Source: an uncultured virus (IMG/VR IMGVR_UViG_3300032007_000021) (Duplodnaviria > Heunggongvirae > Uroviricota > Caudoviricetes). From it: 64,000 bases of DNA. The notes beneath the pieces are model-generated. The model was not told the DNA's origin and did not search any database. It saw only the letters and a program-made list of their open reading frames with translations. Each line of letters begins with the position of its first letter. Within the stretch, counting starts at the first letter, position 1. The stretch lies in IMG/VR virus record IMGVR_UViG_3300032007_000021; one strand, written 5' to 3'. The position numbers and the translations under genes are program-made. This document shows positions 53 through 63,783 of the stretch, in pieces.

Positions 53-802
53 TTACTACATTCTCTAAGGATTCTTACTTGGCATTAATTCCGGAGGGGC
101 AAAATGACTTATTCCATTTGCTTTCCATCTCAATCCCGGTATTCTTGCATTATATATAGTAAGTTGATATATCTATTTCCTCGCTTCCTATATATATTTA
201 CTTACTGCTTCTGTTTGATTCGGCTATAAATTTTGAAACTATGATTGTAACAACAATCCTGCTGTCCATTGCAAAGCGGTTAATCTTATTTTTCCGGGAA
301 ACACTTTCTCTAATGTCCCATCTGGATTTACTCTATTATATCTTCTTACAGGAACAAAATAATACTACTATAAATATGAATCAATATGACCATTCACTAA
401 TTTCATATATTTTTCAACCATTTCATTTGTGATTTTACACAATTTTCCGTTTCCAATATTCAAAGATTTACAAAACAACAAAACATCATTGACTGTTCCG
501 GCATAATATTCAAAACTCCAAGTCTCATCTCCATTTTGTTCTATACCAAAATTACTGTTTCCTTTATTAATAATTACACTATAAGGTTTTTGTTGTGTTG
601 GTAAATACTATTCGTTAAAAGTAATTTGAATTGTATCATCATCTATATACTTCACCTATAAAACAGCATACTAATTGTTTTCATCATAAATTTGACAAAA
701 AACATACCCGTTAAACAAATGTTTAACGGTTAAAACATTAGCTTCCCATGTATAAGAATAATACGTTCCTGTATAATTTTCATCAGTAACTTCTATCAAC
801 AT
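53..802 (-). CDS. hypothetical, probable virion/head-completion protein (TAG read-through)
   Basis: ATG at 802, open to TAA at 53-55 when TAG is sense (249 aa); start overlaps the TGA of the upstream gene. Confidence 0.6.
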
Positions 803-1236
803 AAATCAAATTCTCCAAACTTAAAATTCATTTGTTTTGGATTGTTTCTTATTTCTTTTTGCCAAACGGTATCATTATCCATAATCTTCTATAATTTATT
901 CTTATCAAAACTCGGTATTCTTTCAAAAATCTGTTTCGCATATTTAGGCATCTTATTGAAACATATTTGTATTTGTTTTGAAGTCAGAAAATTTTTATTA
1001 TTATACCACTTACAAATACTTGTTAATATCTCCGCATCATTACCAGTAAATCCAACATTATTCAAATCTCTTGTAATATTCTATTCTTTTTCTTCAGGTG
1101 TCTGTTGTTCGCAAATAACTTGCAAGGCTCTTAACAACCATCTCTTATCTGTCATCAACTTATATTTCAAATAAGCTATCATCTATTTTTTAAAATACTA
1201 TGCCGTTATTTCTTTTGCAATTTTAAATATATTCAT
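796..1236 (-). CDS. hypothetical protein with KIAKE-type N-terminus
   Basis: RBS GGAG, MNIFKIAKEITA*YFKK*...RALQVICEQQTPEE...NNVGFTGNDAEILTS; ends TGA. Confidence 0.65.
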
Positions 1237-1246
1237 ACTTAACTCC

Positions 1247-2071
1247 TCATATATTCAAAGAATCTCCACCACTACGGAAAATTCCACTGTTAATTTTCAA
1301 TCCTCTTATTCTTGTACTATTATAAGTTCCATGCTAACTTGTTCTCAATCCGTTTCCAATCATCAACGCCCTATAATATGCAGGAGTTGGCTTTTTAAGC
1401 ATTTGCGGACTTCTAAAAGTAGGATTATCCAACGTTCTATAAGCCCTATCCTCACAATTTCTTTTCAAAGTCTATAATTGACCAACAATATCTCCACTTC
1501 CTCCGTATAAATTCTAACTGCTTATCGCGTAAATCAATCTACCTTTCCAAATATCATAATCTAACAATAATTTTTCAAAACATTGTGCTAATGCCAAATC
1601 TGCAATAATCGGATCATAACTTGTAGGAGCATCTTCCAAAGTATAATTTGTAACTCCTCCTTGTCCTGCTGTATTAACTGTTCCTAACGCTCTCAAAATA
1701 TATCCTTTCAACACAAAAGCAGGAAAATAATTGAAACTATAACTCACTTGCACATTATCTGCCGGAGTCAACTAAAAATTCATCTTTATTTTTCCATTCA
1801 AATAATCAACCACATACATTTCAGGATTCAATGCTGTCTATGATCCATTCAAAAACACTTCAGGCTAAAATGCTTCATTCCAATTTTGATAATGAAACTT
1901 ATAAGTATCTCCACTGACTTGTTGTTGAACTCTTGTACCTGTTTCATAATACACTTTTAATTGCATATATTCAATCAATAAAGAACTCATCATAGAATTA
2001 ATTATATAATCAACTCTATCCTATCCTGTATTATAATAACTTACAACTGTTCCTGGGAAAACCTAAGACAT
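1247..2071 (-). CDS. putative virion structural protein
   Basis: AGGAG RBS, MS*VFPG...; contains ORF 1514..1771 in frame; ends TGA; 274 aa. Confidence 0.6.
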
Positions 2072-2168
2072 ATCAATCTCCTTAATTTATTTGCTCTATT
2101 AAGGTTGAATATAAACAAATATTTTCAAAAAATATAACACTTGATTTAAAACCAAGTGTTATAAAAAC

Positions 2169-2438
2169 TTAATTCATTTTTAACTTCGGATTTTTGCTTC
2201 TCCAATATTCCTATCCTCTTTTACCACTATCAATATTTTTCTGCGTCATCATATTTCTGTATTTCTATGCCGCAGTTGGAGGCAAATATCCTTCTCCCCA
2301 ATTAAAATTTCCGTAACCTAATTTTCTTTTTGCTTTTTTTCCATCTTCTGTTACAATTTCTTTTGGACACTAACCACACTTGAAAAATTTATTAATCTAT
2401 TCCCCAGTTTCCTAAACAACAAATTTATACAATATCAT
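2169..2438 (-). CDS. small hypothetical protein
   Basis: ATGA overlap with upstream gene; MILYKFVV*ETGE*INKFFKCG*CP...; ends TAA. Confidence 0.55.
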
Positions 2439-6816: not shown

Positions 6817-8019
6817 TTAATTTTGTTTTACATAAAGGACTATAGGCTCTTTACCATCAATATTCCAATAAAAACCAACATTATTATCATATTGATGACG
6901 ATTTCCAAAAGAGATTTCTCTTAATGGTAAAGATAAATTAACAGAAGCATTCATATCAGCATCCATTGTATTGCCACAATGTTTACATGTGAATATCTTT
7001 CCGTTTCTATTATCTTTTCTCGTGTATCCGCATTTGCTACACCTTTGAGAAGTGTAAACTGGTGAAAGCTTCTTTATTTGGACACCAACATCAGAAGCTT
7101 TACCATCTAAAATTTTAAACAATTCGGCATAATTCCAAGATTGCATATTTCTTCTGTTTCTTTTAAATTTTCTTATGTTTTTTATATTCTATCTTTGTAA
7201 AACACCAACATCATTCCAACTTATTTGATTTACACACCAATGTAAAAAATTTGTTCGATGCCTTTGTGTTCTTTTAAATGATTTACTACCTTTTTTCTTT
7301 CTTGCAAGAACATTACAAATTTTTTGATATGTCCACCCGTCTTTATCTTTTCCAATCTGTTGTCCATTAGAACAACTTAATGTATCTTTCAGACCTATAT
7401 CTATTCCGAGTGTTTTTGTGCCTTTAGATTTTATTTCAGGAAATTCAAACATAAAAGTTATATTTTCTTTTGAAAGCCGAATAAAATTTTTTAATTTTCC
7501 ACCTTTAAATATCATTTTATTGAAATGTTTTGTCTTTTTTACAGGAATTTGTATTTTTTGTTTGTTTCCTATTGAAGAAATTGTAACCCAACCATCAAAC
7601 GAACTTTTATTGTTCCAATCAAAAGAAATAAATCTAGAATCTAATTCTATTTCAATTTCATCTAATGAAGGAATAGAGATTTTTGTTTCATCATATATCT
7701 TTTGAATTTTTCTTGCTTTATCAAAATTTCCTTCCTATAACAATCTATCTATAACAAATCTCCTATTGTTTTGTTTCTTTTTTGTTCCGAAAACAATAGC
7801 AGAGGCTTGTTTTCCAGCACATTGTATCATTCTTGCAGACAACCATGTTTTTATTTGTGAACAAAGAGATTTATCAACCATTCTGTTTATTTTTTGTTTC
7901 CCCCACAAGATGAATATAAATTGTTTCATTACATTTTTATATTCATCAACTAAAACAGAAATTTCTTCTGTTCTATGATGATTACAAAATTTTAACGATA
8001 CTTTTGTACTTTTAATCAT
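6817..8019 (-). CDS. tnpB: TnpB RNA-guided nuclease, 400 aa with 2 in-frame TAG
   Basis: three ORF fragments in one frame; RuvC-I LGIDIG, RuvC-II QR*NI, Zn finger CSKC/CKHC, RuvC-III DADMNAS. Confidence 0.85.
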
Positions 8020-18134: not shown

Positions 18135-18827
18135 TCAATCCTTCTATATAATCATCCTATGAAACCTCTATTTCAAACCTTGCATAATATCAAAAAATTT
18201 CTTTTGCTTCATTCCTAATTTTTCTCTGATATATGCTTTCGTAATCTTCTTTTTTTGATATTTCAATTCATTTCCTTTATTCAAATCATTCACATCAGAA
18301 TATAACACCAAATTTATTATATCTCTTTCATTATCATTTAACGTATCCATGAACTTTTTAAATTCTTCACTGAAACATATACTCTATAAAGGTTTTTCTT
18401 CCATCAAACCATATTTCTGAGCTATCTACTATCCCGGCAAACTGTCTCCTTCTTCCCTTTCTTGCAAATCGTCATATAAAATATATCTATCATCTATTTT
18501 CTTCTGTTTCATCCTTAATCCGTTTATCACACTCATACAAACACAAACAATCCAAGTAGATACTCTTGTACCAGCATTTTCATTCCAACTGTGTTTTGCT
18601 TTCGCTATCTTTTTCCATATCTATTGATAAACATCTTTTGTATTTACTTTCACAAAATTTTTGTGAATCAAATCATATAGCAATTTCTTTATCTTATCGT
18701 GTAATTCATTCAACTATTCATCACTAATTTTATTATATTTATATTTTATCATCAACTATCTGTTTGGATCATCTATCTTTTTCTACGATTTCTCCTATTC
18801 AAAATTAAATTCCATTTGCTCTAACAT
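18135..18827 (-). CDS. phage RNA polymerase sigma factor (sigma70/ECF-like)
   Basis: region 2-like DVYQ*IWKKI...GTRVSTWI; region 4-like LNDNERDIINL; 230 aa with many TAG. Confidence 0.7.
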
Positions 18828-19983
18828 CTTCCAATCTCCTTATCTATCTACTTTTACTTGTCTAAATAAATGATAATAATTGCTGTTTATTAAATTTTTT
18901 CGGGTCTTTTTTATCAGGAAAATTCAATACATATAAATGATTAATCTTATCTTTCAATAGCTTATATGCACCTTTACAAGCATTATTTCCAGCTTCATCC
19001 ATGTCAAAACCCAAATAAACAACGTCATCACTCAATTTCTATACCATAATCGTTTGTTCTTCACTCAAATGAGAACCATGTATTGAAACACACGGAATCC
19101 CCTCTTGCATCAACTTCAAACAATCTCTCTAACCCTATACCAATACCAATTCATCAACACCTTTTCCATAACTTTCATTTTCATAATATCCATACAAATG
19201 TTTACTTGCCTTAAATCCATAATTATATAAAGTTTTGCTATACCTTTTTTCCACCTATTTAAACAAATCCTAATCACTGAAATTCTTGTCCTAATATAAT
19301 TTATGATATAACTATATTTTTCTCTTTATCCATTCTTGTTTGCCTAAATAATCTATACCTATAAAACCTATCAATTTCCAATCTTTATTTAAAAAAGGAA
19401 TAATTGCTCTATCTTGATATTTTCCAAACGTACAAACACAAACTCCAAACTTTCTTAATGTGTCTTCTGTAATTCCATCTCTTGCAAAATAATCCAAACA
19501 TTCCTTGTTCATATATCCTTTATCTAATACTTTCTACATATCACTCAACTCTTTTTTCTGTTTATCAATATCAACTATAATTTTATCTTCTGCTTCTCTT
19601 GCAAATTTAGGTTTGTTTTGAATTATTAGTTCCTTTCCATTTAACAATCTGTTCATAGCCTATCTCTAACTCTTCAATCCAAGTATGTTCTTAGCAACAG
19701 TTAAAATATTGCTCGCCCGATGCTCGGTAAAACACCATGTTTTTCCCGTAACTACATTTAAAGTCCATTTCATTTTATCAGGCACTCTGCCACAATATTT
19801 TTCATGATCCGGACAAAATCCATCAATTTGATTATCATGCTGTTTCTCATTAAACTTAATATTTAATGAAGTCAATATCATTGGCACATTTATTTCTCTC
19901 ATAAATGCCTATAATTCTTCAGCTCTGACAATTTTATCTCTTCCTCTTCTCCGCTCTATCTATTCTTTCAATTTATCTATCAT
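18805..19983 (-). CDS. dnaG: DNA primase (DnaG-like)
   Basis: Zn-binding CPDH, RAIIPF, TOPRIM VLV*G*RDC and GFDMDEAG, KDP; 392 aa. Confidence 0.85.
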
Positions 19984-21530: not shown

Positions 21531-22838
21531 TTATTCCACATACTCTAATACTTTTATCTCATTCTTATCTTCGTTTCCTAAAAACACCATATCACTATCT
21601 TCTCCCACACAAACAGGAACAACTACAACATTCCCATCTTTTAATGTCTTTCCTTTTTTTCCTTCATATTTAGCTGTCGATAACATCATCTATATCTAAT
21701 CAGTATCATCTATAAACAAAATCTTCGTCCATTCTTTTCCATTCTTTGAAACAAACGATGTTGCACCCTATATTTTCCCTATCATCAAAGGATATTTCAC
21801 CTTTTTTTCTTTCACTTCTCCTATCGTTTTAACCTTCTTATTCTATGCGATATATTTCTACCATTTCAATAAAACATTCTATTTCAAACAAAATCCATTA
21901 TATTCATAAAACAAATCTTTTAATTCTTTCTTGCTGAAATGTCTTACATTCTTTTCTTCAATTTCTTCTTCCCCAAACAAAAAATCTAAAGTAAGTTGTG
22001 CTTCATCTTTTTTACTCTTCTTTGTATATATATTATTATACCAATTATATAACATCTATCTGCTACCAAATTCATCAAAAGCTCCAGCAAATAACAGTAT
22101 TTCAAATTTACTCTTCCCAAATTTAGTTTTTTCCAAAAAATCTTCTACACTATTGTAAGGCCTGTTTCTAACAACAATTTCTGACTATTTAATTCCCAAT
22201 CCCTTTATATTGGAAATAGAAGCATATAATTCATTTTTATATATCAACCAATGTTCTCCAGATATATTTATATTAGGAGCACGAACCACTAAACCAACAT
22301 TATAACAATACTTAACTCTTTGCTATAATAATTTAACTCCCTTACTCTAATCACCCCTATCTACTTCATCTAATATCCCACACATATATTCTATCAAATA
22401 ATGATGTTTCAAATACAATTGTACTCCAGCATAATAACTGTAACAAATACTATGACTTTGATTGACTTTTCGTAATAAGTATTTCTACTATTAATCAGAC
22501 TATATCATTCATTTATTCCTAAATGAGAGCGCTTAGTCGTTGAACCTTTTCACATGAGGGCGTTCTGTCCTACAAGGAACTTGGATGCGTGGTTATCCAT
22601 ATATTCTCAATCATGTTTTACCATACCCGATTTCATTACTTCGGCCATTTTTTATTTTCATAAAAAACTTGGTCTATTGAGACTTTAGGAACTTCCCGTC
22701 AATTCACTTTCTTTTATATGGACTCAACTTTTTTGTCAATCCATATCCTTGAAACGCAAGGAGTTGATTAAATACTTTCTATGGATAGTCTTTGTCTAAC
22801 TATCCAATCATTTTTTTGCAATAATTTATAATTTTCAT
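21531..22838 (-). CDS. dnaE: DNA polymerase III alpha, C-terminal part (exons 22838-22739 and 22465-21531)
   Basis: spliced FQGYGF/NKSHS motif, YLKHHY, PNINIS, SNIKGLG HhH, AGAFD, OB fold; own RBS and ATG. Confidence 0.85.
22466..22738 (-). ncRNA. group I intron (273 nt, no ORF) in dnaE
   Basis: P1 UAUGGAU/GUCCAUA with U.G at the splice site; TTCAACGACTA and GATATAGTCT core elements; terminal G; removal restores GFNKSH. Confidence 0.9.
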
Positions 22839-23833
22839 TTTCTCCTCTCAGTTATTTCTTTTATTATTTCAAACACACATTCTTGATTATTCAAAATATC
22901 ATCCTACCAAAAATGTAATACCTATAAATTATTTTTCTTTACGAACTAATTCTTTTTATTATCTCTATAAAAATTTATTTTTTGAGATTTTGTTTCCGGA
23001 CCATTTTTATAAAACTTTGGATTTGTATGCCAATAATCTCCATCTATTTCTATAAACACATTTAAATCTTTTAAAAAAATATCAAATGAATAACAATCTA
23101 TTTTCTTTTCATTTTCAAAAACAACATTCAAACTTTTAAGAAACTAATTTATTAAAACATGAGGATAAGTTAATGTTTGTTTCAATTTACCTTCTTTTAT
23201 CATTCTTAAAGCATTAATAGACAATATCTTTTTCGTACTTTCAGAATGTTTATGACCACTATTTCCAGTTTTAGGATTCTATTTCCAAATTCTTTTTCTA
23301 ACAACACTTTGTTTATATTTAGTCTATTCACTTACACTTTTATTTTTTAATGAATTTGAAATATTCATCACTCTTTTATCATCGTTTTTTGTTAAACCTT
23401 TATTCCATGGAGTCATACCATACATAGGATTTTTATCTCCCGTCCTTAATACACTCATTCTTTTGCTATTCTATTCTATAAATTCTTTACTTTTAAAGAA
23501 ATGACCATTTAAAAATTTATTGATTATAATTTTAGAACCACGATAAGAAAAACTTCTTTCTTTACCGCAACCGCAACAACAATTTCCGACCTATATTCCA
23601 TAATATTTTTTAAAATACTAATTACAAGTCAAATTGTGTTGTTTTAAATGTAAAATAAATTTTTTTGAATTATAACATCCTTTCTAAAAACGAATATCTT
23701 TCATATTTACATGACAAATCAAACACTACTCAAAATATTTTTTAGGTATTTCAAGGAGTTGGTTAAAAACCTTCTAAGGATAATCTTTTTCTAACTATCC
23801 AATAGTTTTTTTAATATAATTTTTTATTTTCAT
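22835..23833 (-). CDS. free-standing endonuclease (Zn finger, NUMOD3-like repeats, Vsr/DUF559-like domain)
   Basis: 332 aa; NPMYGMTPWNKGLTK, HKHSESTK, EIDGDYWH, HFW*DDI. Confidence 0.75.
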
Positions 23834-25091: not shown

Positions 25092-25116
25092 TAACTATTC
25101 TCCTATATAAAAAAAA

Positions 25117-25150
25117 TACCTATATGAAATTTTTACTCTCATATAGGTAA
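25117..25150 (-). terminator. repeated terminator hairpin, copy 3
   Basis: tacctatatga/tcatataggta inverted repeat. Confidence 0.7.
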
Positions 25151-33018: not shown

Positions 33019-33035
33019 AATATTTCTCCTTTTTA

Positions 33036-37642: not shown

Positions 37643-39630
37643 TTTACAGGAATCCTATCTTCTATATTTTCAACGCTCTATCTCTCATTATTCTACTGAT
37701 TTTTCTATTCACTAATCTATTCTTCACTCTTATCGTTTTTCTGTTCTTCATTCTAATTTTTATTTTCCTATCCCTATCCTAAAGAATCTAACAAATCATC
37801 AACACTCATTTCAGACAAATCTTTCTACTATCCCTCATTCATCTCAGACAAATCATCATCAACTCCACCGCCATCATCATAACCACCATCCTATTCTTGA
37901 TTTGCTTTTCTGGATAATTTCTTACCTTCTGGCCCAACCATAGTATTGATAATCTGATCCACCAAATCTGTTTGCTAACTGATCTGCGAACTCAAATCAC
38001 TGTAAACACCACGAATCAAATCATTATATGTGGCATCTTTGACAGTAAACATATCTTCTTTCAATTTTTCATTAATCTAATCTTCATCTAAATTGAACAC
38101 CTCATACAAATAACCAATCGGTATTGAACCTTTTTGATATAATTGAAACAAACTGTCAAACACTTCAGCATTATCTCTAATAGTTAATCTGCTGAAACTT
38201 AATCTCGGATATATCCATATCTTGTTCCCAAACTAATCCTCTTCGTAAAAATCATTTTCTTTTGCCATTGGAAGAAACAAACTGTCTTCAACAAATCTCT
38301 GCAAAACCTATCTTGTTAACAAATATCTTGTATTTAATATTTCTATACTGATTTTTGATCCGGAATACATACCCTATCCAGTTAACAACTATTTTGTAAC
38401 ACCCAACCCGGCAAACAACTGATCGTTTATATTGTCATATTCTCTTCCCAAATCTATAAGCCTGTTCTACGCACCTATTTGTTCCCAGTTCCAATCATAG
38501 TTTGTAACAATACTATAATCAGGATTCAACATGCTCATATCAACCTGTTCTCTTAAATCATTTAACGCATCTTCTGTAATTCCAGGAGCGGAAATTTTAT
38601 TTCTTGGAGTCATATTTCTGCTGGCCAAATTTAATTGCGTATATTTATAGTGTTCCTTCATCAATAAAGGTATTAAAACACACTATAAAGGGCTAACGCC
38701 CAAATCTTCATATTCATGTTTGTTTTCCACAAAATGATAAACAAAAGAACCCATCTTATGCTATCCATCTCCACAATAAGGAGAAGTGTCCATAATCAAA
38801 GTACCATTATTTTCAACCAATTGTTTCGTAAATTCAAAAGGAACATTCTACATTACTTGCTTTTCATCCTAATCCAATCTCTATACCCATTCCTAATATT
38901 CTTCCTATGAATCTAATGGAATTGTAAATCTTTTCATCAATGAACTCAACACCTATGGTGTATATTGTATCTTACTCTAACTGCTCATAGGAAATCTTGA
39001 AACAACTATCTCTTCTGGCGGTAATATCACCAATTTCTACCATTCCTTTTCCTATTCATTCATTTGACAAAAAACAAAAGCATTTCCAATCACATTTTGT
39101 TCCAATAAAATAGCATGTAATTTTTCAAACAATTTAATCTTTTTAACCATATTCTCATATTTATATAAGATTTGCTTTCTTCTCTTTTCATCTTTCATTT
39201 TAGGCATTCTCAACAAAAGTTTACTCATCGGCAAATCTGTATGCAATCTTACTGCACTTTTAACAAAAGGATCACTTTTACTGAAATATCTATACCAACT
39301 GTATTTTTCTTTCAAAGTAACTGGCCAATATAAGATTCCACCATTATTCTCATTCATCATTGCAATATAAAGTGGTACATCTCCAAAAGCACAAGTGCCC
39401 TGACCCATATTTGCATAACTATTATTTAAATAAGTAGTATTTAATCCGGAACCGCTAAACGTATTCCAACCAAATCCAAAACCACCAAGCGCAGCGTTTC
39501 TCTTCGGATTTCTTGCCTATATTATTTTCTATTTATCAATCTTTCCAGAAACAGCATTTCCAGCAAAAACAGATTTTGTTTGCTCAACATTGTTTTTAAC
39601 TGATTTCTTTGTGTTCTTTCTATTTCTCAT
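37639..39630 (-). CDS. portal protein
   Basis: 663 aa downstream of the terminase; DPFVKSAVRLHTDLP, IGNAFVF, GLGVTK*LLTG*GMYSG. Confidence 0.75.
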
Positions 39631-39907: not shown

Positions 39908-42133
39908 TCAATATCCTAAAATATTCTTTCTGTTAAAAAAACCATCGTGCATTTTCATCTTTTTTAAATGATAAGCCTAAACACTTTTATTGCTTAAAAC
40001 AACTCCATTACCAAAACCTATAGATGTTCCACTTTTTCTATTTTTATTATTATCATTATAACAAGACCAAACAGCTCTACAAAAAGCATCAGATATATCA
40101 TCGTGAAAACCCATAACTCTTGGTGATGCAACGGAAATCTGTCCACCATTCTTCTCTTCCTATAATGTAATCAACTATGGTATCAACACAGGATGATTAA
40201 ATAATTTCAAATATCCACCCTTGATTAACATTTTACTCAACTGAAACATTTGTGTATTCAATCCGGCAGACATTGCTTGTAATCTAAATTGTCCCAAACC
40301 TCTTTCTTTTAATGCTTCCAATAAACCATATCCATTAAACTGATCGAACCACCCATCAACAATTAGAAAATCATCACATAATTTTTTGATCTTATCGGCA
40401 ATCCCGCCAATCGGTAAAACTTCGTATCCAGTAAACTATTTTGATGTGTTTTGATAAAAACCGTTTGTAGCCTACCACACATCACTGCTACCACTGAAAA
40501 ATACATCTGCATAATCCAAAAAAATCTGCTATCCTTCTTTGTGAACAATACAAATAGCTGTTCCGTCTGTTTTTCCTCCATAATCAATGCCCATATAATA
40601 AACTTTTCCACGCTATCCAATCTTCTTACTCTGACAACTATTATCAATTATTGCCTATCTCAATTCCTATTCCGTTATCCAACAACTAATATTATCTGAA
40701 AATTGCGCTCCAAATTCACACATGAAAGATTCTTTGTTCTTCTTATATTCTGAACGTAAAAAAGCACTATCTATCATAGGATTAACCATTGCCGTGTACA
40801 TTTGATACATCAACATATTCTAATCATCTTGGAATGACTAACGATATTTGTTGTAAAACAATCCACTTTTACTAAATGGAGAACTTAACAACATTATTCT
40901 TCCCTACCCACGACCATCATGTGTAAATGATGCTATAGATGGAGTCAAAGCATTATATATCTACTATCCACTGTTCTTTACACCTTGCATAAAGAATGCC
41001 GCTTCATCAAAAATAACCACCAAATTATTTTTTCCACGCAAACTGGCACTACTTGCACCACCACACAATAATTTGACACTTGGAGATGAACCTCTCCTAA
41101 TATCATCATCAGTTTTCAGATTAAAGTAACTTTGCGTTTTATTTTCAATTCTATCTTTTAAAAAAGAACAATTCACACTTCTCGATTTTATCATATCAAA
41201 TAAAGTCGATGCTTGTTCATCTGTTGTTGCAACTGTTGTAACAGCTATCTATTGACCCAAAGGGAAACCAAAATAATCTTGTGGATTATCCATTTTCACC
41301 AAACGATATGTCTAATAATTTGCTATTACAGATGCCATCACACTATTATGTGTAACAATTTCATTTGCTATAACATGTGTTTCTCCAACTTCTATAGCTA
41401 TCGTTTCATGTAAACCTGTATTCTATATTTTTTGTATCTATTCCAAAACCACATAACCATTCTATACACAATATAAAGCATCTCCTATCTTTAAATCTTT
41501 AGCCTAAACCCATTTTGACTAACTGCAACACCAAACCAAATACGGATGATTAAATGTTGTCTATTCTGATTTTCCACCTTTTGTAACAACTTTCAAACAC
41601 TCTCTAATCCCATTCTCTTCCATTTTTATATTATACGTTTGACAAACCTAACCATATTTTAAAGTGAAAATTCCAATTCTCTAATGATTTTTATATTTAT
41701 TAAATAAATCTCCAACACTCATTATTCCTTCAGTAGTACGAATCTTTGCCGATATGTTTTGACATTTACTGCTTCTTCTTCCAAGACATAAAACCATCTA
41801 TCTTCTTCTATGACCTGGTGTGTATTCCTTCAAATTAGTTTTTCTTTCATCTATCAAATACTTCATAAAATCATCCTATGTATAAGTACCTAGAATCTTA
41901 GTATTCAAAATATCACGAACCTATATATCTTTATTTCTTTTATCAAGCTACATACCATAAAAAGTTTTTAAAATAAATTTTTGCATGGGAAACAATTTGA
42001 AATTCAATCCCCAACTTGCTGTCGCAAAAGTTATAACATCTACTGCTCCACCTTCATTCAATGTTCGTTTATATTCATCAGCAAGATTCTGAAAATAATT
42101 CGTGTTTACTTTTTGATTCTGAGATTTTGTCAT
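39908..42133 (-). CDS. terL: terminase large subunit with intein
   Basis: 741 aa; Walker A GRRSSK[intein]S, Walker B VIFDEAAF, SSP motif, nuclease MGIDYG and HDDISDA. Confidence 0.9.
41345..41764 (-). other. mini-intein (140 aa, no endonuclease)
   Basis: starts CQNISAKIRT, block B TFNHP, ends VTHN followed by Ser. Confidence 0.9.
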
Positions 42134-47125: not shown

Positions 47126-48748
47126 TCAAGTAGAAGGATTAATTTCTTTATCTTTTTCAAGATTGTAACGGAACGATAATAAAACTTCTTTTACCTTTTC
47201 TCTTTTGAGTTTTTTAGGTTCAAAAGTTCCATTATCAAGTTTACTGTTTTTTAAAAGTTCATTTCTTAACACTGTCGAAACTACTCTTTCTTTTATGTTT
47301 TCAGAAGCATTTATATCAGCATTAGCTATATATCCACATTCTATACATTCAAATTCCTCTTGACTTTTTCTATTTTCAGAATCTATACATCCGCATTTAG
47401 GGCAAGTCTGAGAAGTATAGCAACTATGTACTAAACTAACCGCTATTACATATTTTCTTGCTATGTGTTCAAATTCATCTTTCAGTGAAGATAATTTAAG
47501 CAATTTAATTCTTCTATTATAATTCAAATCGTTTTCATCTTTACAAAAACATTTTTCTTCAAATCCCGTCAGATTTTCAAATATGGCATGGTCAATTCCT
47601 TGAGAGTTAAATCTTTTACACAACTTAACAATTTCTTCTCTAATTTTAGAATGTAATTCTCTTTCTAAATGTTTTATCTTATGGCTTCTTCTTTTTCCAA
47701 TTTCATAATCTTTATTTCTTTTCTTACATTTGTCTATCTTCAAAAGTTCCTTACTTAATGTTTCTACCAACTTTCTATCATAATCAATAGTGTCACCATT
47801 GTTGCATTGAAATAAATTATGTTTACTGTTTATATCTATTCCAACAAAATTACTTTTGTTTTCCGGCATTTCTCTATTATCAGCATAACTTAATATCATT
47901 CTAATTTGATTATTTTCTTCTAAACATAAAGTATATGATGTATCAGTGCTGTTAGTATATCTTTTCATATCTTTATAAAAATCTTTTGAATATTTGACCG
48001 GAATTGTTAATTTCTTTCTGTTGTTTATACTCCAAGAAACATTGATAAATGCTTTAATACATGAATTAAAGTTTTCGTTGTAAGAAACAATATCAGAAGT
48101 CAATCTACTTCTTCCTCTAAATGTTAAAGAAGTGAAGTTTATAGGATATTTAGAATAATGTTTAATTACTCTTTCTCTCCTTGAAAGAGCAAGTTTCATC
48201 AATCTTCCAAATCCATATTTATATATATGGTCTAAAATTGTAGCATAGAATTTTTCTTTCTTTTCATCAGTTTCTTTTACAAATTTTTCAAGTAAATAAG
48301 GAATTATATTCTCATTTCCATATCTTGCTAAATAGGTTAAAGTAGCACTTAATTCAGTAGTTTTAGTTTTCTTACTTATTCCCTTAAAGTCGCCAATCTT
48401 ATGATTTTTAGTTTTTCTCTTGTAAAGAAGAATTTGATAATCACAAATTTGCTCAAATTTCAGTTTTCTATTTATACCATCAAACTTGTTTTGATATGCA
48501 ATATAAATATCATCAAGTAACTGCTTTACAAAATTTGAATGTACTTTATTTTTAATTTCTTGAAGCAAGTATTTTTGAAACTCAAATTTACTCATATCAA
48601 GATAAAAAAGTAAGTTTGAGTTTACTTCTTTTGAAATTTCATTTTTGATTTTATTCAAGTAAACAGCAAAAACATAGATTTCCTGATATTTCGTATCACT
48701 CAACCTATCACTATAAAAACTTTTACTGTATCTACTTTGTATTTTCAT
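47126..48748 (-). CDS. tnpB: large TnpB (540 aa)
   Basis: VGIDIN, IFENL, CPKCG/CIECG, NADINAS. Confidence 0.85.
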   Translation of the reverse strand: MKIQSRYSKSFYSDRLSDTKYQEIYVFAVYLNKIKNEISKEVNSNLLFYLDMSKFEFQKYLLQEIKNKVHSNFVKQLLDDIYIAYQNKFDGINRKLKFEQICDYQILLYKRKTKNHKIGDFKGISKKTKTTELSATLTYLARYGNENIIPYLLEKFVKETDEKKEKFYATILDHIYKYGFGRLMKLALSRRERVIKHYSKYPINFTSLTFRGRSRLTSDIVSYNENFNSCIKAFINVSWSINNRKKLTIPVKYSKDFYKDMKRYTNSTDTSYTLCLEENNQIRMILSYADNREMPENKSNFVGIDINSKHNLFQCNNGDTIDYDRKLVETLSKELLKIDKCKKRNKDYEIGKRRSHKIKHLERELHSKIREEIVKLCKRFNSQGIDHAIFENLTGFEEKCFCKDENDLNYNRRIKLLKLSSLKDEFEHIARKYVIAVSLVHSCYTSQTCPKCGCIDSENRKSQEEFECIECGYIANADINASENIKERVVSTVLRNELLKNSKLDNGTFEPKKLKREKVKEVLLSFRYNLEKDKEINPST

Positions 48749-49377
48749 TTTGTTTCTTGTTTCTTCCTATATTCTTTAGATTGTCTTTTTCTTCTACTAT
48801 GTAATTTCGCTGTAAAACTTGTCATTAAACTCATTACATCTTCCACAAGTTCTGCTTCAAATGATTTCGGCAAGGTTTCTTCTACACATTCAATTTCAAC
48901 TCCATAAGAATTAAAAAACACTTTTATACAATCAAATCCAAATCTTACTAATCTATCCTTATGTTCAACTACCACTTTGTTGATTTCACGATTGATTACA
49001 AGTTGATATAATTTATCCAATTTAGGACGATTATATTTCATTCCTGAACAACAATCATCTAATATATATCCAATTTTATATCCTTTAGATACACAATATT
49101 CCATTACTCTAGTTTTTTGTCTATCCAAATCACCGTGTTGCTTTTGGTCATTACTGCTTACTCTTGTATATATTGCAACTACATCTTTATTCAAATTTTC
49201 ATTTTCAACTTCTTTACCTTGTAAAGATAAAATTTCAGATAAAAGATATTTACGATGTTTACCAATAGTTTTACTACATTTTATCTTTCCACTATCAGTC
49301 CATCTTCTTAAAGTATTATGATGCACTCCAAGCATTTCGCTTGCTTTTGATATTGAAATAAATTTATCTTGATTCAT
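48745..49377 (-). CDS. tnpA: IS607 serine recombinase TnpA
   Basis: MerR-like HTH (LGVHHNTLRRW), YTRVSS, EHKDRLVRFG. Confidence 0.9.
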   Translation of the reverse strand: MNQDKFISISKASEMLGVHHNTLRRWTDSGKIKCSKTIGKHRKYLLSEILSLQGKEVENENLNKDVVAIYTRVSSNDQKQHGDLDRQKTRVMEYCVSKGYKIGYILDDCCSGMKYNRPKLDKLYQLVINREINKVVVEHKDRLVRFGFDCIKVFFNSYGVEIECVEETLPKSFEAELVEDVMSLMTSFTAKLHSRRKRQSKEYRKKQETK

Positions 49378-50725: not shown

Positions 50726-51994
50726 TTAAAAAGGTATCTGTTCAAAACTGTCTCCTTTATCTGATAATTTGAGAAATATCCCTTCTTGATAAGGCATTTC
50801 ATTGATACGTTTATAATAACTGTTGTTTATCACCCACATAATTGGTAAATTGTATCTTTCTTTAATTTTCGGTGCTTCCATATCCGTGAAATATATCAAA
50901 GCATCAAATTTTCTGTCACTTACTTCTTTCAATAATGGTTCCAAATCCGTACCTCCCCTTCCACTTACACTACCATCCCATTCCCTGAATGAATATTCTC
51001 TTTGTATCTTAGTATCTGCTTCAAATATCGTAATATCTGCTCCTGTTTTATCCACCCAATACAATTCATTGAAAAATAATTCCAACATTTCGTTGTTAAC
51101 ACTACCACTGGTATCTATCCCTATCGCCAAATTCAATACATCTTCTTTCTTCAATCCGGGTCTTGTTCCGTATCTTTTACTTCTCTTCTTTATCGTATAA
51201 TCCAAAACATTTTCACTGCTGCTTGCTATAAATTGTTTCAAAATAATCTGCCACGGTATCGCTCTTTTGTGATGTTCCAAACTGCTTTCTATCTCTTCTT
51301 TTAAATCAGAAGGTACATCTCCCCATTTACCTGTCTTTTTACAAGTTTGCACCGCTTGACGAATAATATCTTTTAACATCTCTTCCGCTATCGGATCATC
51401 TTTCACTATCTTCCATAATTCATGACTGTCTATCTCTTTATTACCTGTTTTCTCTCCTTTTCCTTCTCCTTCTCCAACCATAATAACAAAAACACTATTG
51501 CACATTTCCTTATATTTTTTATTGTTTTCCAATCTCCTGTAATATTCATGGACTCCTAATTTGCTTTCCAATCCAAAATCTTCAGCAAAAACTCCTGTTT
51601 TCTCTCCTTTCCCTTCTCCTATCAGTTTTTCCCGGTCTATATAGCTGTTTACACTACATTCACATGCAATATTCAACCTCTGTTTATCAGGCAAATCTAT
51701 CGTCAAATGCTTAAATATCAAATGATATATCTCATGTTTCAAAACTTCCAGTAAATGATTGCTCAATTTGTCAAATCCAAATTTTTCATACAATCCAACC
51801 AAATAATCTTTATTCACATATAATTTCGTTTGTATCTCTTCTTTATCAGTTTTTCCAACAGCTAATGTGTTAACACCCCTACTGTCTTTATTATCTACAT
51901 AAATAATCGGTAATTGACTGATAATGTGTCCAAAAAATACATTCTTCCTTATCAAATCTATTTTCGTGTTCGTTACAAATTTTTCAATGTCCAT
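50726..51994 (-). CDS. metallopeptidase-vWA domain protein (DUF2201-like)
   Basis: HEIYH, MIDAS IDTSGS, GRGGTD, YFTD. Confidence 0.85.
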   Translation of the reverse strand: MDIEKFVTNTKIDLIRKNVFFGHIISQLPIIYVDNKDSRGVNTLAVGKTDKEEIQTKLYVNKDYLVGLYEKFGFDKLSNHLLEVLKHEIYHLIFKHLTIDLPDKQRLNIACECSVNSYIDREKLIGEGKGEKTGVFAEDFGLESKLGVHEYYRRLENNKKYKEMCNSVFVIMVGEGEGKGEKTGNKEIDSHELWKIVKDDPIAEEMLKDIIRQAVQTCKKTGKWGDVPSDLKEEIESSLEHHKRAIPWQIILKQFIASSSENVLDYTIKKRSKRYGTRPGLKKEDVLNLAIGIDTSGSVNNEMLELFFNELYWVDKTGADITIFEADTKIQREYSFREWDGSVSGRGGTDLEPLLKEVSDRKFDALIYFTDMEAPKIKERYNLPIMWVINNSYYKRINEMPYQEGIFLKLSDKGDSFEQIPF

Positions 51995-56416: not shown

Positions 56417-57439
56417 TCAAAACAAGTTTCCTTTCATCTTATTCTACATCAACAACAATTCAAATTCATTCTCTCTTAAATGAAATCCATTCTCTCTTAA
56501 AAAATCATCCAGTTTCTACCAATCAGAACTGTTGACTTTATCATAAACCTACAAAAAAGTACGCATCTTTTTTAATTGATAAGCCAACAAAACTATTTCT
56601 TTATTCTATAAAACACTAAACTATTTCTTCATCTCTTTTATTTTATATTCATCCTTTGAAACAGCTTGTTTCAATAACTCCACACTTCCATAATGCTATA
56701 TATCTTTCTAAAAATATTCTTTCGTTTTATTTAATAAATTCTATAAACTATTGTACTTTTGTATCAATTTACTTCCACTTTTATAACTAATCCCCTTTAC
56801 TCCATAAATCGTATCACTTCCACTGCCAAGCTCTCCAGCCAAAGCACCTATATCAACCCATTGCTTATTGTCTTCTATGCCATAATTCTATTTCAAATAT
56901 TGTCTGTCTATGTAAATTTTTTTAATGCTATTGTAAATTTTAACATTCGGCTACAACAACTGAAAATAATCTTTATCAGATGTAACAACAATTACTTCAT
57001 CATATATATCTTTATATTTATAAACAAAACTTCCTATTACATCATCGGCTTCCTATCCAACAATTCTTTCTTGTTGTATTTTTGTGTATGACAACAATTC
57101 CTATACACCCCTTAATTGCTTCATAAACTATTCGTTTTTCGCTTTTTCCTGCTAACTTAATAATTGCTTAGACTATCTTCTTTCCTGCTTATAAGTCTTC
57201 TAAATAATGCCCTTTTCAACAGCCTATTGAGAAATCCTCAATCTTTCTTTATATCCTCCGTCCCAACAAACAACATATCTTACAAAATCACCACTCATCT
57301 CCATCTTTTTCATCAAACTCAATAAATTCTTTAAAAAAGCATAAATATATTGAACTTTCTTTCCGTTATAATCTAATTCTCCAACATAACTTCCCTTGAA
57401 ATAAAAGTTTATTCCATCTATTAATACTAATTTTTTCAT
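56417..57439 (-). CDS. 5'-3' exonuclease (PolI N-terminal/FEN-like)
   Basis: LVLIDG, VCWDGG, EADDVIGS, SDKDY, GSEVDTIYGVKGI; 340 aa. Confidence 0.85.
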
Positions 57440-60265: not shown

Positions 60266-61525
60266 TTATCCTCTAAAATTATAAGTTTCCTCAACCATTT
60301 TAATAATATCTGGATTGCCTTTTATAAACCTTTTCCCTTCCTTGCAACCACCCAAAAGAATACTTCTAATAAACCCGTACGAAGTATCTCTTGGCAAACT
60401 CTTTGAAAGCATCCAATTCTGTACAGGCTTAATATGTTTTTCTTCAAACTGATATTGATTACTGCACAAATACGCAACAAGTCTATCATTAACCACATTA
60501 ACAATATCTATTCTCGGCTCTTTACCTTTCATCAGACCTTCCAATTTTTTCAAAGCTTTTTCATTATGTTCCAGAATCATTTCGGGATCAATCACCAATT
60601 CAACATCTCTCAAGAAAAACACCATCATAGCTTCAACAGTTTCTTCATCCAAAAGACTTCTTGCTTCAATATAAATTTTTGCCCTATCGTTTTCACTCAA
60701 GTGTTCAGGATATTTTTTAAGCATTCTAAAAAATTCAGTCAAAGTTCTCGGATTCGTTCGCTCACTTCCAACCATCATTTCAGGATATTTCAGAACAAAA
60801 TTAATCCCTCTTGCATCCAATCCCTCATTAGTAGCCCATTTTGCCCATTCTTTAGCATCTGGTTCAAGTGTAATATGCTTCATTCTCGTCAACTGAGCCA
60901 CATCCATACTTGTAACCTGATTCCATCTGTTGTCCGGATTTCCAGTAAAAATAATAGTCCATCCTTTAGGAAGTTCCCAACTAATAGTTTTATAATCCTG
61001 AACCAACTGCATCAGACCTTTCAAAATTCTCTGATTCGCCCTGTTTCCATCATCAAACAAAATAACTCCGGGACATTCTTCTTCAGGAACCCAACTCGGT
61101 TTTGCATATTTTGTAACAGGAGATTTTTCAGTAGGAACCCATCCTGCTTTTGTCATTTCTCCAATATAATCTTTCAAAAAAGATTTTTTCACACCATCTT
61201 TTTCCATTTCAACAAAAGTTTCCGGCAATCCAATAACATCTCCTTGTTCGTCCAGCATTGCAAGGGGAATATCAACAACTTTCACCCCTTCAAATTCCTT
61301 GCCATTCATCGTAAACCGTTCATTTTCCAACTGTTTAACGATAGACGTTTTACCACACCCTGCACACCCCCAAATATCAAGCGTAAATCTGTTCTTATTT
61401 CCTCTATCAATATTATCTTGAATAGCATTCAAAATAAATTCTTTTACTTCACTCGGTTTAAGATGCTGACCATAGCAACCAAAATACGAATCGTTTTTCT
61501 CTACTTCTTTTTTCTCTTTAGCCAT
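60266..61525 (-). CDS. MoxR-like AAA+ ATPase
   Basis: GCAGCGKT, ILFDDGNRA, TGNP, NPRT. Confidence 0.85.
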   Translation of the reverse strand: MAKEKKEVEKNDSYFGCYGQHLKPSEVKEFILNAIQDNIDRGNKNRFTLDIWGCAGCGKTSIVKQLENERFTMNGKEFEGVKVVDIPLAMLDEQGDVIGLPETFVEMEKDGVKKSFLKDYIGEMTKAGWVPTEKSPVTKYAKPSWVPEEECPGVILFDDGNRANQRILKGLMQLVQDYKTISWELPKGWTIIFTGNPDNRWNQVTSMDVAQLTRMKHITLEPDAKEWAKWATNEGLDARGINFVLKYPEMMVGSERTNPRTLTEFFRMLKKYPEHLSENDRAKIYIEARSLLDEETVEAMMVFFLRDVELVIDPEMILEHNEKALKKLEGLMKGKEPRIDIVNVVNDRLVAYLCSNQYQFEEKHIKPVQNWMLSKSLPRDTSYGFIRSILLGGCKEGKRFIKGNPDIIKMVEETYNFRG

Positions 61526-61671
61526 ACTAATCCATTCCTTTCATTTTGATTTAATGTTATGTGTTTCTATCAAAGAAAATAACAAAAAAAATTTTTAATC
61601 ACAAAAAATCATTTATAATGTAAAATATTTAAAACAAATTTCTTTAAGAAAAACGAAAAAGGAGAAAAACT

Positions 61672-62505
61672 ATGAAAGTTAGAAACATTGTTGCCGAATT
61701 GATAAAAATTGCAAAAGACATCATCTCTTTTGATATGACAGAAAGAGAATGGGAAAAATATCACAAAGAACATCCAAATGCAAACAAAGCAAACCATCAT
61801 ATTATTAAAGTTCCCGGAAAACATTTTTCTCAAAGTAAATATAAAGAATATATAAATCGCTAGAGAAAAGCAAAAATCAAATATTTTAAAGAATTAAAAC
61901 AAAACCATCCAAACTATATTCCAATTGTTCCAAAGAAAACTTTCGATTATCTTATCCAAAATAAAGAATATAGTTGCATATCTGCTGGAATAAATCCAAA
62001 CTCACAAGAAGATATAAATAATGCTAAAAAAGACCCTGATTTCATAAAAAACAGAACAGAATAGCTGAGAAAAGACTTGGATAAATTAGGCGTAAAATAT
62101 ACAGAAATCGTTGGAAATTACGATGGAGAAGAACCTTCTTTTTTAATAAGTCATAATGTTGATTCAAAGATTGCTCAAAAACAAAAAGACAATACTTTAC
62201 TTGTTTCTGGCAACAATTATTAGAACAACAATAAAATCATCGAAAAATTGAATCAATTAGGAAAAAAATATAATCAAGATTCGGTCGCACATTCTAAAAA
62301 CGGAAAAATGGAATGGCATTATACTACAGGAGAAAAAGCTGGAAAAAGAGTGAGAGGCTTAGGTACTCAAATGTTAAATTCAGCAGATAATTATTATTCA
62401 TAGGCAAGAGTTGGAAACAATGATTTTACAATGTGGAGTTGTGATATGTCACCAGCATGGTAGAATCCAAATGCTTTAGAAGATAATCCTTATTTCAAAT
62501 AGTGA
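61672..62505 (+). CDS. KIAKE-leader protein with DUF3293-like domain
   Basis: AGGAG RBS; open through TAGs to TGA; ISAGINP, GEEPSFLI, LGKKYNQDSV; only clear plus-strand gene. Confidence 0.7.
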
Positions 62506-62785
62506 AATTCTTCGGCATAATTTCTCTTGGAGTGCATTTACTCTTTTTACAATAAACATCTAAATCTGCCCCCTTTAAAATCAATAAACGCGCAACTTCT
62601 AAATATCCTTTTTCAAATGCAACAATAAGAGGCAATCTCAAAATAAATGTAGCACCAAAATTATATTCAAGATTTTTATTTAGTATTGTTGTTTCTGTAA
62701 TATGTTCTTTCAAATATTCTATATCATTGTTTTCAATTGCTTCATACAACCAAAAACTTGTGTATTCCTTTTCTTTTTTATTCAT
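62495..62785 (-). CDS. ankyrin-repeat-like protein
   Basis: PLIVAFEKGYLEVARLLILKGADLD. Confidence 0.65.
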   Translation of the reverse strand: MNKKEKEYTSFWLYEAIENNDIEYLKEHITETTILNKNLEYNFGATFILRLPLIVAFEKGYLEVARLLILKGADLDVYCKKSKCTPREIMPKNFTI

Positions 62786-62853
62786 TTTCACCCTTCATTT
62801 TTGATTTGATGTTAAAAATTTTTCCAAAATAAAATTAACATCTCAAAATTTTA

Positions 62854-63783
62854 TCAACATTTTTTATCTTTATAACTTTTTATTAACTACAATACAGACT
62901 CCTAAATATTATTCTTTTTCCCCACCTTTTCCAATATTTCAAAAATATCTTTTGATTCTTTCTTGAATTGTTTGAATGATTCTATATATTTCGATTGCAC
63001 AATATCTGTTTCAACCTTTATCACTTGTTCTTGTTTTTCAGGAAAAATATTGTCTCCTTGACTGTGTTTCAACACTTTTTCTTGTAAACTTATCTCTCTT
63101 TTTCCAAAAAACTATTCTATATTTATAATTGCAACTTTCGGCTATCTGTCTTTATCATCTCTACTTACTCTCAATAAAGACCCCGGATTGTAAAAAGAAA
63201 TTCCATATTTATTCTTTTGATAATCATGTCCATAATGCAAATGACCACTTAAAACCAAATCTATATTTTTATTGTTTATCATGTTCAAACTAATATTTCC
63301 AACATCATTATTATCTGACAATTCACTGTGAGTCAAAAATATATTTACTTTCTAACTTTTCTGTATGCTCTATGCTGTTTTATACAAATTCTGGCCGGAA
63401 TGACAAACATAAACATTACAACATTCAGTTTCTAACTTCTCATTTATTATTTGAAATTTATTGCCTAACAACTTGCTTAAAAAACCAATATTAGATTTCT
63501 ATACCGTTTGCCATCTAAATCCCATTTCATCATGATTTCCCATAATATAATAAACAGGAACATTATTTTTATCTAAAATATCATAAATTGGATATATCAA
63601 ATCATAATTCAGCTATCTGTGCCTATCAAAAAAATCTCCTCCAAACAAAATAAAAGCACATTTTTGATATTCAAACCAATTTAACGCTTCTTTCAGTTTA
63701 TTCAAACATGTTTCAAAAGCATTATCTAGTCTATTCTAATTTTTCAAACTAAAATGACTGTCTGTAAAAAAACCTATTTTCAT
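62854..63783 (-). CDS. SbcD/Mre11-like metallophosphoesterase nuclease
   Basis: TDSH, GGDFFD, GNHD, SGHLH, NPGS; 309 aa. Confidence 0.8.

Follow-up and report, generated by a model that had tools for sequence, protein, structure and literature searches.

What does TAG specify in a phage in which most genes carry it in frame? The question is raised by a 64-kb stretch of DNA (hereafter, the window), about one-third of a cattle-rumen phage contig of around 187 kb that represents a jumbo-phage genome. In the phage literature searched, as far as the text of the sources was available, stop recoding has led from TAG to glutamine and from TGA to tryptophan or glycine, with TAG assigned to glutamine in each of the reports of TAG recoding (10.1101/2021.08.26.457843, PMC8346664, PMC10607447, PMC13037316). 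According to the available text of the Borges preprint (10.1101/2021.08.26.457843), phages with a code differing from that of the host showed no changes other than TAG-to-Gln and TGA-to-Trp, and Gln was the best match for TAG ‘in most cases’; from the two observed changes, the preprint argues that the synthetases a phage can hijack are GlnRS and TrpRS. Here, we report that TAG is read through as a sense codon in the genes of the window and that comparison with relatives, distant homologues and solved enzymes argues for glutamate as its very probable meaning, with TAA and TGA as the sole terminators. This glutamate reading, restricted to TAG and not known to have been described in a phage, had been proposed from the DNA letters alone (the original prediction).

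TAG is an in-frame sense codon

Treating TAG as sense raises the number of open reading frames of at least 100 amino acids in the window from 53 (table 11) to 92, and minus-strand genes that are fragmented under table 11 then stand in a nearly gap-free row (Table 1). TAG accounts for 448 of the 18,134 codons (about 2.5%) in minus-strand frames of this length, which terminate with TAA (35) or TGA (30). After curation of 64 minus-strand genes, TAG is present in 53 and absent from 11; the terminators are TAA in 35 and TGA in 29, with no TAG among them. Because these genes contain no in-frame TAA or TGA, the change is limited to TAG, and the other two remain the only terminators. TAG is the final sense codon of a single gene, near the chance expectation. 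Translation starts at ATG in 56 of the 64 genes, a Shine–Dalgarno-like motif precedes 44 (background rate, 0.17), and four pairs of neighbouring genes overlap as ATGA. The TAG-bearing genes align end to end with the genes of relatives. The description of gene structure in the original prediction is thereby borne out, and the ten TAG sites that it singled out (19135, 19129, 7189, 27068, 28973, 18621, 22904, 29915, 30966 and 24525) are all exact. In codon counts, TAG (448) stands between GAA (1056) and GAG (about 194–197), which amounts to around one-quarter of all glutamate codons if TAG is counted among them.

Table 1 Features of the window with in-frame TAG counts
Feature	Position	Strand	Remarks
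Run of 64 phage genes	53..63783	-	TAG sense; 53 TAG-bearing, 448 TAG; TAA/TGA ends
TnpB of IS607-like unit	6820..8019	-	2 TAG; TAG at 7189-7191
DNA primase (Toprim)	18808..19983	-	14 TAG; TAG 19135-19137 at EG..D Glu
Homing/HNH-type endonuclease	22838..23833	-	13 TAG, including 22904-22906
N6/N4 DNA methyltransferase	24330..25142	-	15 TAG
Methyltransferase paralogue	25887..26744	-	TAG-free; GAA/GAG at several TAG positions of the paralogue
1161-aa fusion protein	26765..30247	-	24 TAG; named sites 27068, 28973, 29915
Major capsid gene, two exons	30447..31653 (31653..31438 + 31091..30447)	-	1 TAG
Capsid intervening sequence, 346 nt	31092..31437	-	Skipped exactly in RNA-run contig
Two acidic proteins, possibly scaffold-like	32158..33623	-	13 and 6 TAG
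Portal protein	37642..39630	-	30 TAG; 52-63% identity to portals of standard-code relatives
Large terminase	39911..42133	-	28 TAG
IS607-like unit (TnpB + serine recombinase)	47129..49377	-	0 TAG in 750 codons
VWA-like/metallopeptidase-domain gene (DUF2201)	50729..51994	-	TAG-free
5'-3' flap exonuclease (FEN)	56420..57439	-	17 TAG
ATPase gene (PHROG 1297)	60269..61525	-	TAG-free
Only long plus-strand gene	61672..62502	+	6 in-frame TAG

Strain polymorphism is consistent with this frame: among the SNPs listed, most are synonymous and at third positions when TAG is read as sense. These SNPs (40 of 173) are uninformative on the identity of TAG; one falls at a TAG (TAG>TAT), in a low-complexity tail with high foreign depth.

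Standard-code relatives favour glutamate opposite TAG

We aligned the TAG-bearing genes with those of seven phage contigs, C1 and six further relatives, of which the aligned genes have no in-frame TAG; such an alignment records what the TAG sites were formerly and what they tolerate, rather than the residue inserted by the ribosome. In C1 (57% GC; no TAG among 6,502 aligned codons), the 219 positions facing TAG hold E 90 times, D 25, R 18, A 16, a gap 13 and S 9, with each other residue, Gln among them, at most 7. This profile resembles that opposite the GAA/GAG codons of the window (E at 174 of 414, D at 55) and is unlike that opposite CAA/CAG (Q at 62 of 184, E at 28), with log-likelihoods of the C1 TAG column profile of −490.5 for E and −622.4 for Q. 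The six other relatives have E at 33/82, 8/16, 11/18, 45/97, 46/113 and 45/99 of their residues facing TAG, which brings the pooled count over seven relatives to 278 of 622. Restricting the comparison to the 106 TAG sites covered by at least three relatives leaves 41 conserved ones, at which the residue is E (34), D (3), A (2), V (1) or T (1) and never Q; conserved GAA/GAG sites carry E in 61 of 73 cases and conserved CAA/CAG sites carry Q in 29 of 39. As a positive control, the same procedure recovers the standard residue for 49 of 49 sense codons with C1 only and for 58 of 59 with all relatives. The sole TAG of the capsid gene (30966-30968) likewise faces E in relatives.

The recoding appears to be confined to one lineage, as judged from aligned genes, because the other sampled relatives have no in-frame TAG in them. 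In-frame TAG is absent from 79 of 80 capsid relatives in IMG/VR, and the eightieth sequence is itself a piece of this phage. The recoded lineage also has the lowest GC content of the clade (30%, compared with 37–67% in relatives). Queried with the portal or the terminase as a single protein, the viral collection returned no relatives; alignment-based scans found them.

Distant homologues and catalytic sites agree

Homologues from outside the clade give the same answer. For the methyltransferase and the flap exonuclease, which together contribute 30 TAG columns, the log-odds are +23.0 for E, +0.7 for D and −5.1 for Q, with controls correct. Of 120 methyltransferase homologues, 115, 111 and 117 have E at TAG columns 213, 222 and 251, respectively; the flap exonuclease has 17 TAG columns, of which 6 are led by E and none by Q. 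Two sites lie in catalytic motifs. In an alignment with three solved DnaG primases, the primase TAG at 19135-19137 takes the place of the Glu in EG..D, and the TnpB TAG at 7189-7191 aligns with the E of ‘IQMEDL’ in solved Cas12f/TnpB chains, which we take to be the RuvC-II catalytic glutamate. At catalytic glutamates of this kind, an acidic residue must enter for the enzymes to work; exchange of E for Q at those of Toprim and RuvC enzymes inactivates them.

Paralogues within the window were said to pair TAG with GAA/GAG. These pairings hold: across seven paralogue pairs and 48 TAG positions tallied in both directions, the partner is TAG in 14, E in 11, Q in 2 and another residue in 21. Composition also points to glutamate, with GAA and GAG together making up 8.54% of codons in TAG-free genes and 6.59% (plus 2.95% TAG) in the remaining genes, while Gln codons make up 2.67% and 2.81%, respectively. 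Per gene, the frequency of TAG is not significantly correlated with that of Glu or of Gln. Since orthologues, diverse non-clade homologues and structure-aligned catalytic glutamates agree, TAG very probably encodes glutamate rather than glutamine in this phage, as originally predicted.

Eleven genes avoid TAG

The 11 TAG-free genes comprise 2,844 codons, in which about 84 TAG would be expected at the rate of the other genes (P about 1e-37); a subset of genes thus stays compatible with the standard code. Bulk virion genes are nearly devoid of the codon (1 TAG for the capsid and none for the decoration protein), and the replication genes for the primase and flap exonuclease are rich in it (14 and 17). 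The avoidance by TAG-free and virion genes would fit a costly suppression that competes with RF1, and the TAG-free genes may be translatable before a suppressor accumulates, although this early/late reading is a proposal only.

Alternative explanations

Could the TAG codons be sequencing or assembly errors, the misreading of a modified G as T, or sites corrected at the RNA level? In-frame GAG is rarer than TAG, as a GAG-to-TAG misread would also give, and a systematic G-to-T error had been named at the outset as grounds for abandoning the glutamate reading. We compared assembled contigs. Those of four other studies cover a 16.5-kb stretch with 171 TAG, match it with few differences and keep the TAGs, with 2, 0, 7 and 1 A>C changes over the whole stretch. 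A contig from an RNA run, which derives from RNA because it is spliced at the capsid intron, is identical to the window over 31438-33739 and holds 19 TAG unchanged. Moreover, GAG still makes up 1.37% of codons in the TAG-free genes, and the codon of relatives opposite TAG is often GAA and not GAG. An artefact is therefore so improbable as to be negligible, and the suspected G-to-T error finds no support. More serious is the possibility that TAG is glutamine, as in code-15 phages, its position at former Glu sites being due solely to a G-to-T mutation bias that turned GAG into TAG. The recoded phages of the literature searched, in the available text, were all assigned Gln, and two methyltransferase columns do prefer it: the HPT-TAG-KP site at 24525-24527, an exception conceded from the start and confirmed here (among 120 homologues, 115 have Q and 5 have E), and column 73 (Q in 70 of 120). 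A database relative with 94% identity (P0001) is also stored with Q at every TAG, but this reflects the translation choice of the source and is not evidence. Against glutamine, beyond its absence from the conserved sites and the TAG codons at the Toprim and RuvC glutamates, the share of Glu at conserved TAG sites (34/41) matches that at conserved GAA/GAG sites (61/73), so TAG is as frequent there as GAA/GAG and there is no sign of selection removing it. In the AT-rich relative L003, the codons facing TAG are GAA (22) more often than GAG (11), and therefore many TAG lie two changes from the codon of the relative. With TAG as Gln, moreover, TAG-bearing genes would have twice the Gln content, reaching 5.8% where TAG-free genes have 2.7%. 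We consider the glutamine reading highly improbable, although less so than an artefact.

If TAG is glutamate, the host itself might read it so, the phage mirroring the host code with no need for a suppressor of its own. The window, one-third of the genome, yielded no tRNA (none with ARAGORN at default settings, with introns allowed, or with Rfam at gathering thresholds), relative C1 lacks any tRNA, and TAG is found in both replication and virion genes, all of which would suit a host-native code. However, the absence of TAG from 11 genes and its near avoidance by the proteins most abundant in the virion agree with a codon that carries a cost or can be read only at times, which argues against a host-native code. 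The TAG-free IS607-like unit at 47129-49377, of which homologues 63–99% identical occur on many large contigs, has close homologues on standard-code relatives, and the Codetta screen, in its available text, reports no bacterium with TAG reassigned. On balance, a host-native code seems unlikely, while more plausible than glutamine. Two known decodings of TAG were accordingly set aside: code 15, given no Gln at any of the 41 conserved TAG sites and its negative log-odds, and pyrrolysine, given that TAG is frequent (2.5%) rather than sparse and aligns with Glu, and that scans of the window with Pfam and PHROG gave no pyl-type family.

A candidate decoder

With TAG as glutamate, the decoder would be a tRNA of glutamate identity whose anticodon is CUA, a single base away from tRNA-Glu(CUC). 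The tRNA searches cover the 64-kb window, and this tRNA may be encoded in the approximately 123 kb of the contig outside it; in the window, the 26 low-quality calls that ARAGORN made at an 80% threshold include no CUA anticodon. Likewise, no tRNA with this anticodon was found in the relatives G002 and G003, which carry tRNA arrays, or in the metagenome-assembled genome containing C1; synteny with the arrays was not useful, with only the methyltransferases having homologues nearby. The tRNA would be charged by the GluRS of a host that uses the standard code. We tentatively propose a separate phage code of recent origin in a single jumbo-phage lineage, the 86 other sampled relatives being standard, with glutamate possibly the outcome because the host lacks GlnRS and its GluRS accepts a tRNA-Glu body with CUA.

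This decoder has a laboratory counterpart. Normanly and colleagues reportedly obtained amber suppressors from E. coli tRNA-Glu in 1990, with the same combination of tRNA-Glu body and CUA anticodon, and these are said to be largely mischarged with Gln by GlnRS. Compared with them, clean insertion of Glu would need another synthetase context, such as a host without GlnRS.

Comparison with known codes

Glutamate at UAG has a precedent in eukaryotic nuclear codes: in peritrich ciliates and Blastocrithidia (NCBI tables 30 and 31), UAG and UAA both specify Glu, and in Blastocrithidia UGA is also Trp. The phage would share the decoding of UAG with them and, unlike them, keeps TAA as a terminator (35 genes, with none in frame). 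With the code-15 phages (crAss-like, Lak, phAss-1 and the groups of Borges et al.), it has in common TAG as sense in many genes, termination at TAA and TGA, some genes without the recoded codon and a gut or rumen habitat, as well as, with Lak, a jumbo-phage genome. It differs from them, as far as the available text of those reports goes, in having Glu, not Gln, in its TAG columns, and from the pattern described for them in that its replication genes are TAG-rich. Compared with those phages, neither a suppressor tRNA nor an RF2 gene was seen in the window, about one-third of the genome; among stop-recoded phages, a CUA suppressor tRNA is present in only part of the known cases.

The claim of novelty stands against the literature searched, in which TAG recoding, in the text available, means Gln. 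A phage with TAG as Glu would break the rule of TAG-to-Gln and TGA-to-Trp and point to GluRS as a third route. Should the proposed dependence on the charging system of the host hold, one could predict from its synthetase set which amino acid a recoded stop acquires in phages. Translating such phages with code 15 would then get about one-quarter of glutamates wrong. At least one public entry, the 94%-identical relative, in effect places Gln at catalytic glutamates, and annotation, structure prediction and peptide searches based on it would be led astray. With dozens of standard-code relatives around one recoded lineage of lowest GC, the clade offers a clean natural experiment.

Other features of the locus

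The 1161-residue fusion protein combines a Vsr-like endonuclease motif, Ros/MucR fingers and two methyltransferase domains. The terminase contains an intein-like insert of around 135 residues (approximately residues 129-263) that is missing in relatives C1, L003 and L055. The capsid intervening sequence matched no Rfam family. In the two acidic proteins, TAG lies within E/D-rich runs, and the spliced RNA contig covers both genes without differences.

TAG is read as a sense codon

The window has a G+C content of 30% and nearly all of its genes lie on the minus strand. Under translation table 11 the genes are broken and 53 open reading frames (ORFs) of at least 100 amino acids are recovered, whereas reading TAG as sense gives 92 in an almost gap-free row. 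The minus-strand ORFs of at least 100 amino acids contain 448 in-frame TAG among 18,134 codons (GAA 1056, GAG 197, CAA 375 and CAG 130) and stop at TAA (35) or TGA (30). Among the 64 curated minus-strand genes, TAG is present in 53 and absent from 11 (2,844 codons); 56 start with ATG, 44 have an SD-like motif upstream (background rate 0.17) and four neighbouring pairs overlap as ATGA. All ten TAG sites named in the original prediction were found where it had placed them and, with the ORF row contiguous only when TAG is read through, it is essentially certain that TAG functions as a sense codon. Pfam and PHROG scans recover an ordinary tailed-phage gene set, and the window matches a 22,223-nt locus of a 187,352-bp metagenome contig at 100% identity; it therefore represents about one-third of a jumbo-phage-sized contig.

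Features of the window
Feature	Position	Strand	Basis
Virion and packaging genes (portal, large terminase, major head protein, maturation protease, tail fibre proteins)	window		Pfam + PHROG
Replication genes (primase, Pol III alpha fragment, FEN, ParB)	window		Pfam + PHROG
Several DNA methyltransferases	window		Pfam + PHROG
Two IS607-like TnpA/TnpB units (serine recombinase + TnpB)	6820-8590; 47129-49377	-	Pfam/PHROG
Major capsid gene, split by 346-nt insert	30447-31653; insert 31092-31437	-	C1 comparison + RNA contig
Large terminase, insert of ~135 aa (residues ~129-263)	39911-42133	-	alignment to relatives
Proteins with IAKELV(R/K)IAKEI motif	17046-17870; 20070-21113; 25184-25681; 49974-50666; 53266-54216	-	
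Protein with IAKELV(R/K)IAKEI motif	61672-62502	+	
Heptosyltransferase and 639-aa neighbour	9010-12230	-	

Standard-code relatives favour glutamate at TAG sites

We compared the window with seven relatives, comprising C1 (a 183-kb contig of 57% GC, binned in a bacterial MAG), three metagenome contigs (L002, L003 and L004) and three IMG/VR contigs (L054, L055 and L056), which have many syntenic genes in common with it at 25–82% identity and no in-frame TAG in their aligned parts. Facing 219 window TAG, C1 has E 90, D 25, R 18, A 16, S 9 and 13 gaps, and no more than 7 of any other residue, Gln among them; it has E at 174 and D at 55 of 414 positions facing GAA/GAG, and Q at 62 and E at 28 of 184 facing CAA/CAG. 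Scored against the C1 profile of each residue, the TAG profile gives -490.5 for E, -602.3 for D and -622.4 for Q. In the remaining six relatives E faces TAG at 33/82, 8/16, 11/18, 45/97, 46/113 and 45/99 positions (278/622 pooled over all seven).

At least one relative aligns at 268 of the 448 TAG sites. Where three or more do (106 sites), 65 sites are variable and 41 conserved, the latter holding E 34, D 3, A 2, V 1, T 1 and Q 0. The pattern at GAA/GAG sites is the same as at TAG (114/187 variable, with E at 61 of 73 conserved), and CAA/CAG sites have Q at 29 of 39 conserved. Applied to sense codons as a positive control, this tally gave the standard residue for 49/49 with C1 alone and for 58/59 with all relatives, the exception being a tie at TCG.

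Distant homologues, catalytic sites and composition

In an alignment of 120 database homologues of the methyltransferase with 15 TAG, E occupies TAG columns 213, 222 and 251 in 115, 111 and 117 homologues, and column 191 has E 70 and D 24. Contrary to Glu, column 73 has Q 70 and column 206, within HPT-x-KP, has Q 115 against E 5, making the exception noted in the original prediction a real one. For the 5'-3' flap exonuclease (FEN; 148 homologues kept among 150 listed), E ranks first in 6 of the 17 TAG columns, and Q does so nowhere. Summed over the 30 usable TAG columns of both proteins, log-odds are +23.0 for E, +0.7 for D and -5.1 for Q; in the control, E, Q, D, K and N were each returned for their own codons. 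Two database proteins were left out of this sum: P0136, which is a 71-aa piece of the query, and P0001, 94% identical to the window methyltransferase with Q wherever the window has TAG, which comes from a relative of the present phage that its source translated with code 15.

The first TAG of the primase motif VLV-TAG-G-TAG-RD aligns with the E of LVEGYFD, LLEGFMD and VVEGYMD in solved DnaG primases, and that of TnpB LQR-TAG-NIKNIR with the E of IQMEDLTNIR in solved Cas12f/TnpB chains; we take these to be the metal-binding glutamates of Toprim and RuvC. TAG-free genes contain 8.54% GAA+GAG and 2.67% CAA+CAG, and TAG-bearing genes 6.59% and 2.81% with 2.95% TAG. Counted as Glu, TAG makes up the shortfall in Glu; counted as Gln, it would double the content of Gln. 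Among in-window paralogues, 48 TAG positions were tallied, of which 14 face TAG, 11 face E and 2 face Q.

The proposal that TAG encodes Glu and not Gln is thus borne out by the conserved sites and the log-odds alike. Glutamate as the meaning of TAG is strongly supported by three sequence-level comparisons that are independent of one another and whose controls worked.

Sequencing artefact and RNA editing

The stretch searched is present in runs labelled bovine gut and goat gut. Assembled contigs of four runs from four other studies, compared over 30400–46900 (171 TAG codons), match the window with few differences, for example 16 in 3,117 nt, and several RNA-run contigs with 0. Most of the 40 strain differences listed, of 173 in all, fall on third positions of the minus-strand codons and are synonymous, and the TAG-crossing frames are therefore under purifying selection. 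Were TAG a systematic G-to-T error for GAG, a reversal would read as A>C on the plus strand; A>C changes across the whole stretch number only 2, 0, 7 and 1 in the four runs, leaving such an error unsupported at contig level. GAG makes up 1.37% of codons in TAG-free genes, and relatives often have GAA, not GAG, facing TAG (22 and 11 in L003).

The capsid gene is uninterrupted in C1; L055 has an insert at the same place as the window's. No Rfam family matched the window insert. In an RNA-run contig, 31091 is followed directly by 31438, which shows that the insert is spliced out and that the contig derives from spliced RNA. This contig has 0 differences over 31438–33739, a span with 19 TAG, and the message therefore keeps UAG.

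Decoder and comparison with other recoded phages

No tRNA was found in the 64-kb window, and no translation-related gene in its Pfam and PHROG family scans. The decoder would be a glutamate-identity tRNA with a CUA anticodon, whose gene would lie in another part of the genome; a single change would convert CUC to CUA. Arrays of 10–11 tRNAs in two relatives contain no CUA anticodon. In hosts with GlnRS, CUA-anticodon tRNAs tend toward glutaminylation, and we speculate from general biochemistry that Glu instead of Gln could come from a host without GlnRS whose GluRS is tolerant at anticodon position 36.

In the passages concerned, the Lak phage paper assigns TAG to Q and explains some E-aligned TAG by GAG-to-TAG mutation (PMC8346664), the phAss-1 paper assigns it to Gln (PMC10607447), and a 2026 survey of jumbo phages treats it as Q and finds recoded members mostly in rumen, pig gut and human gut (PMC13037316). 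Unlike in Lak phages, where TAG is assigned to Q despite some E-aligned sites, conserved TAG sites here have E at 34/41 and Q at none. The literature searched on phage recoding and glutamate yielded no report of TAG as Glu in a phage.

Distribution of TAG and of recoding

TAG is unevenly used: the 11 TAG-free genes have a probability by chance of P ~1e-37. The second capsid exon has 1 in 215 codons, the decoration protein 0/149 and three tail-region proteins 1 each; portal has 30, terminase 28, FEN 17 and primase 14. This distribution suggests that reading TAG carries a cost or depends on conditions.

In an alignment-based scan, the capsid protein matched 80 IMG/VR loci, two of which lie on contigs already among the seven relatives. 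In-frame TAG is absent from the aligned genes of 79; the 80th, L078, is a 2.9-kb piece of the present phage with 20 TAG in common with the window. Among those sampled (the 80 loci and the seven relatives), TAG recoding is thus confined to the present lineage, which has the lowest GC content in the sampled clade. In its MAG, which totals 2.1 Mb and is labelled Victivallaceae, C1 (G001:C1, L036-L045, 183,234 bp) is the longest contig; it is syntenic with the window phage over many genes and shares its 57% GC with the rest of the bin. No tRNA was found on C1. It is probably a jumbo phage or prophage related to that of the window, placed in the bin together with its host or on compositional grounds.

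Mobile elements and other features

The IS607-like unit at the higher coordinates is TAG-free and has homologues at 63–99% identity on many contigs of 250–308 kb, including two copies on the standard-code relative G002; members of its family seem to move between these jumbo phages. The other unit has two TAG, one at the RuvC glutamate, and the pair is consistent with adaptation of such an element to the code of the phage.

The terminase insert starts with Cys, ends with His-Asn followed by Ser, holds 8 TAG and is missing from C1, L003 and L055; it therefore resembles a mini-intein and looks like a candidate for one, with no intein family reported in it by Pfam. Several otherwise different proteins, three with LRV/HEAT repeats, carry an IAKELV(R/K)IAKEI-type motif at the N-terminus, which may be a shared targeting or packaging signal. 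In the tail-fibre region, a TibC-like/GT9 heptosyltransferase gene adjoins that of a 639-aa Asn/Ser/Thr-rich protein, a neighbourhood that suggests possible glycosylation of a virion protein.
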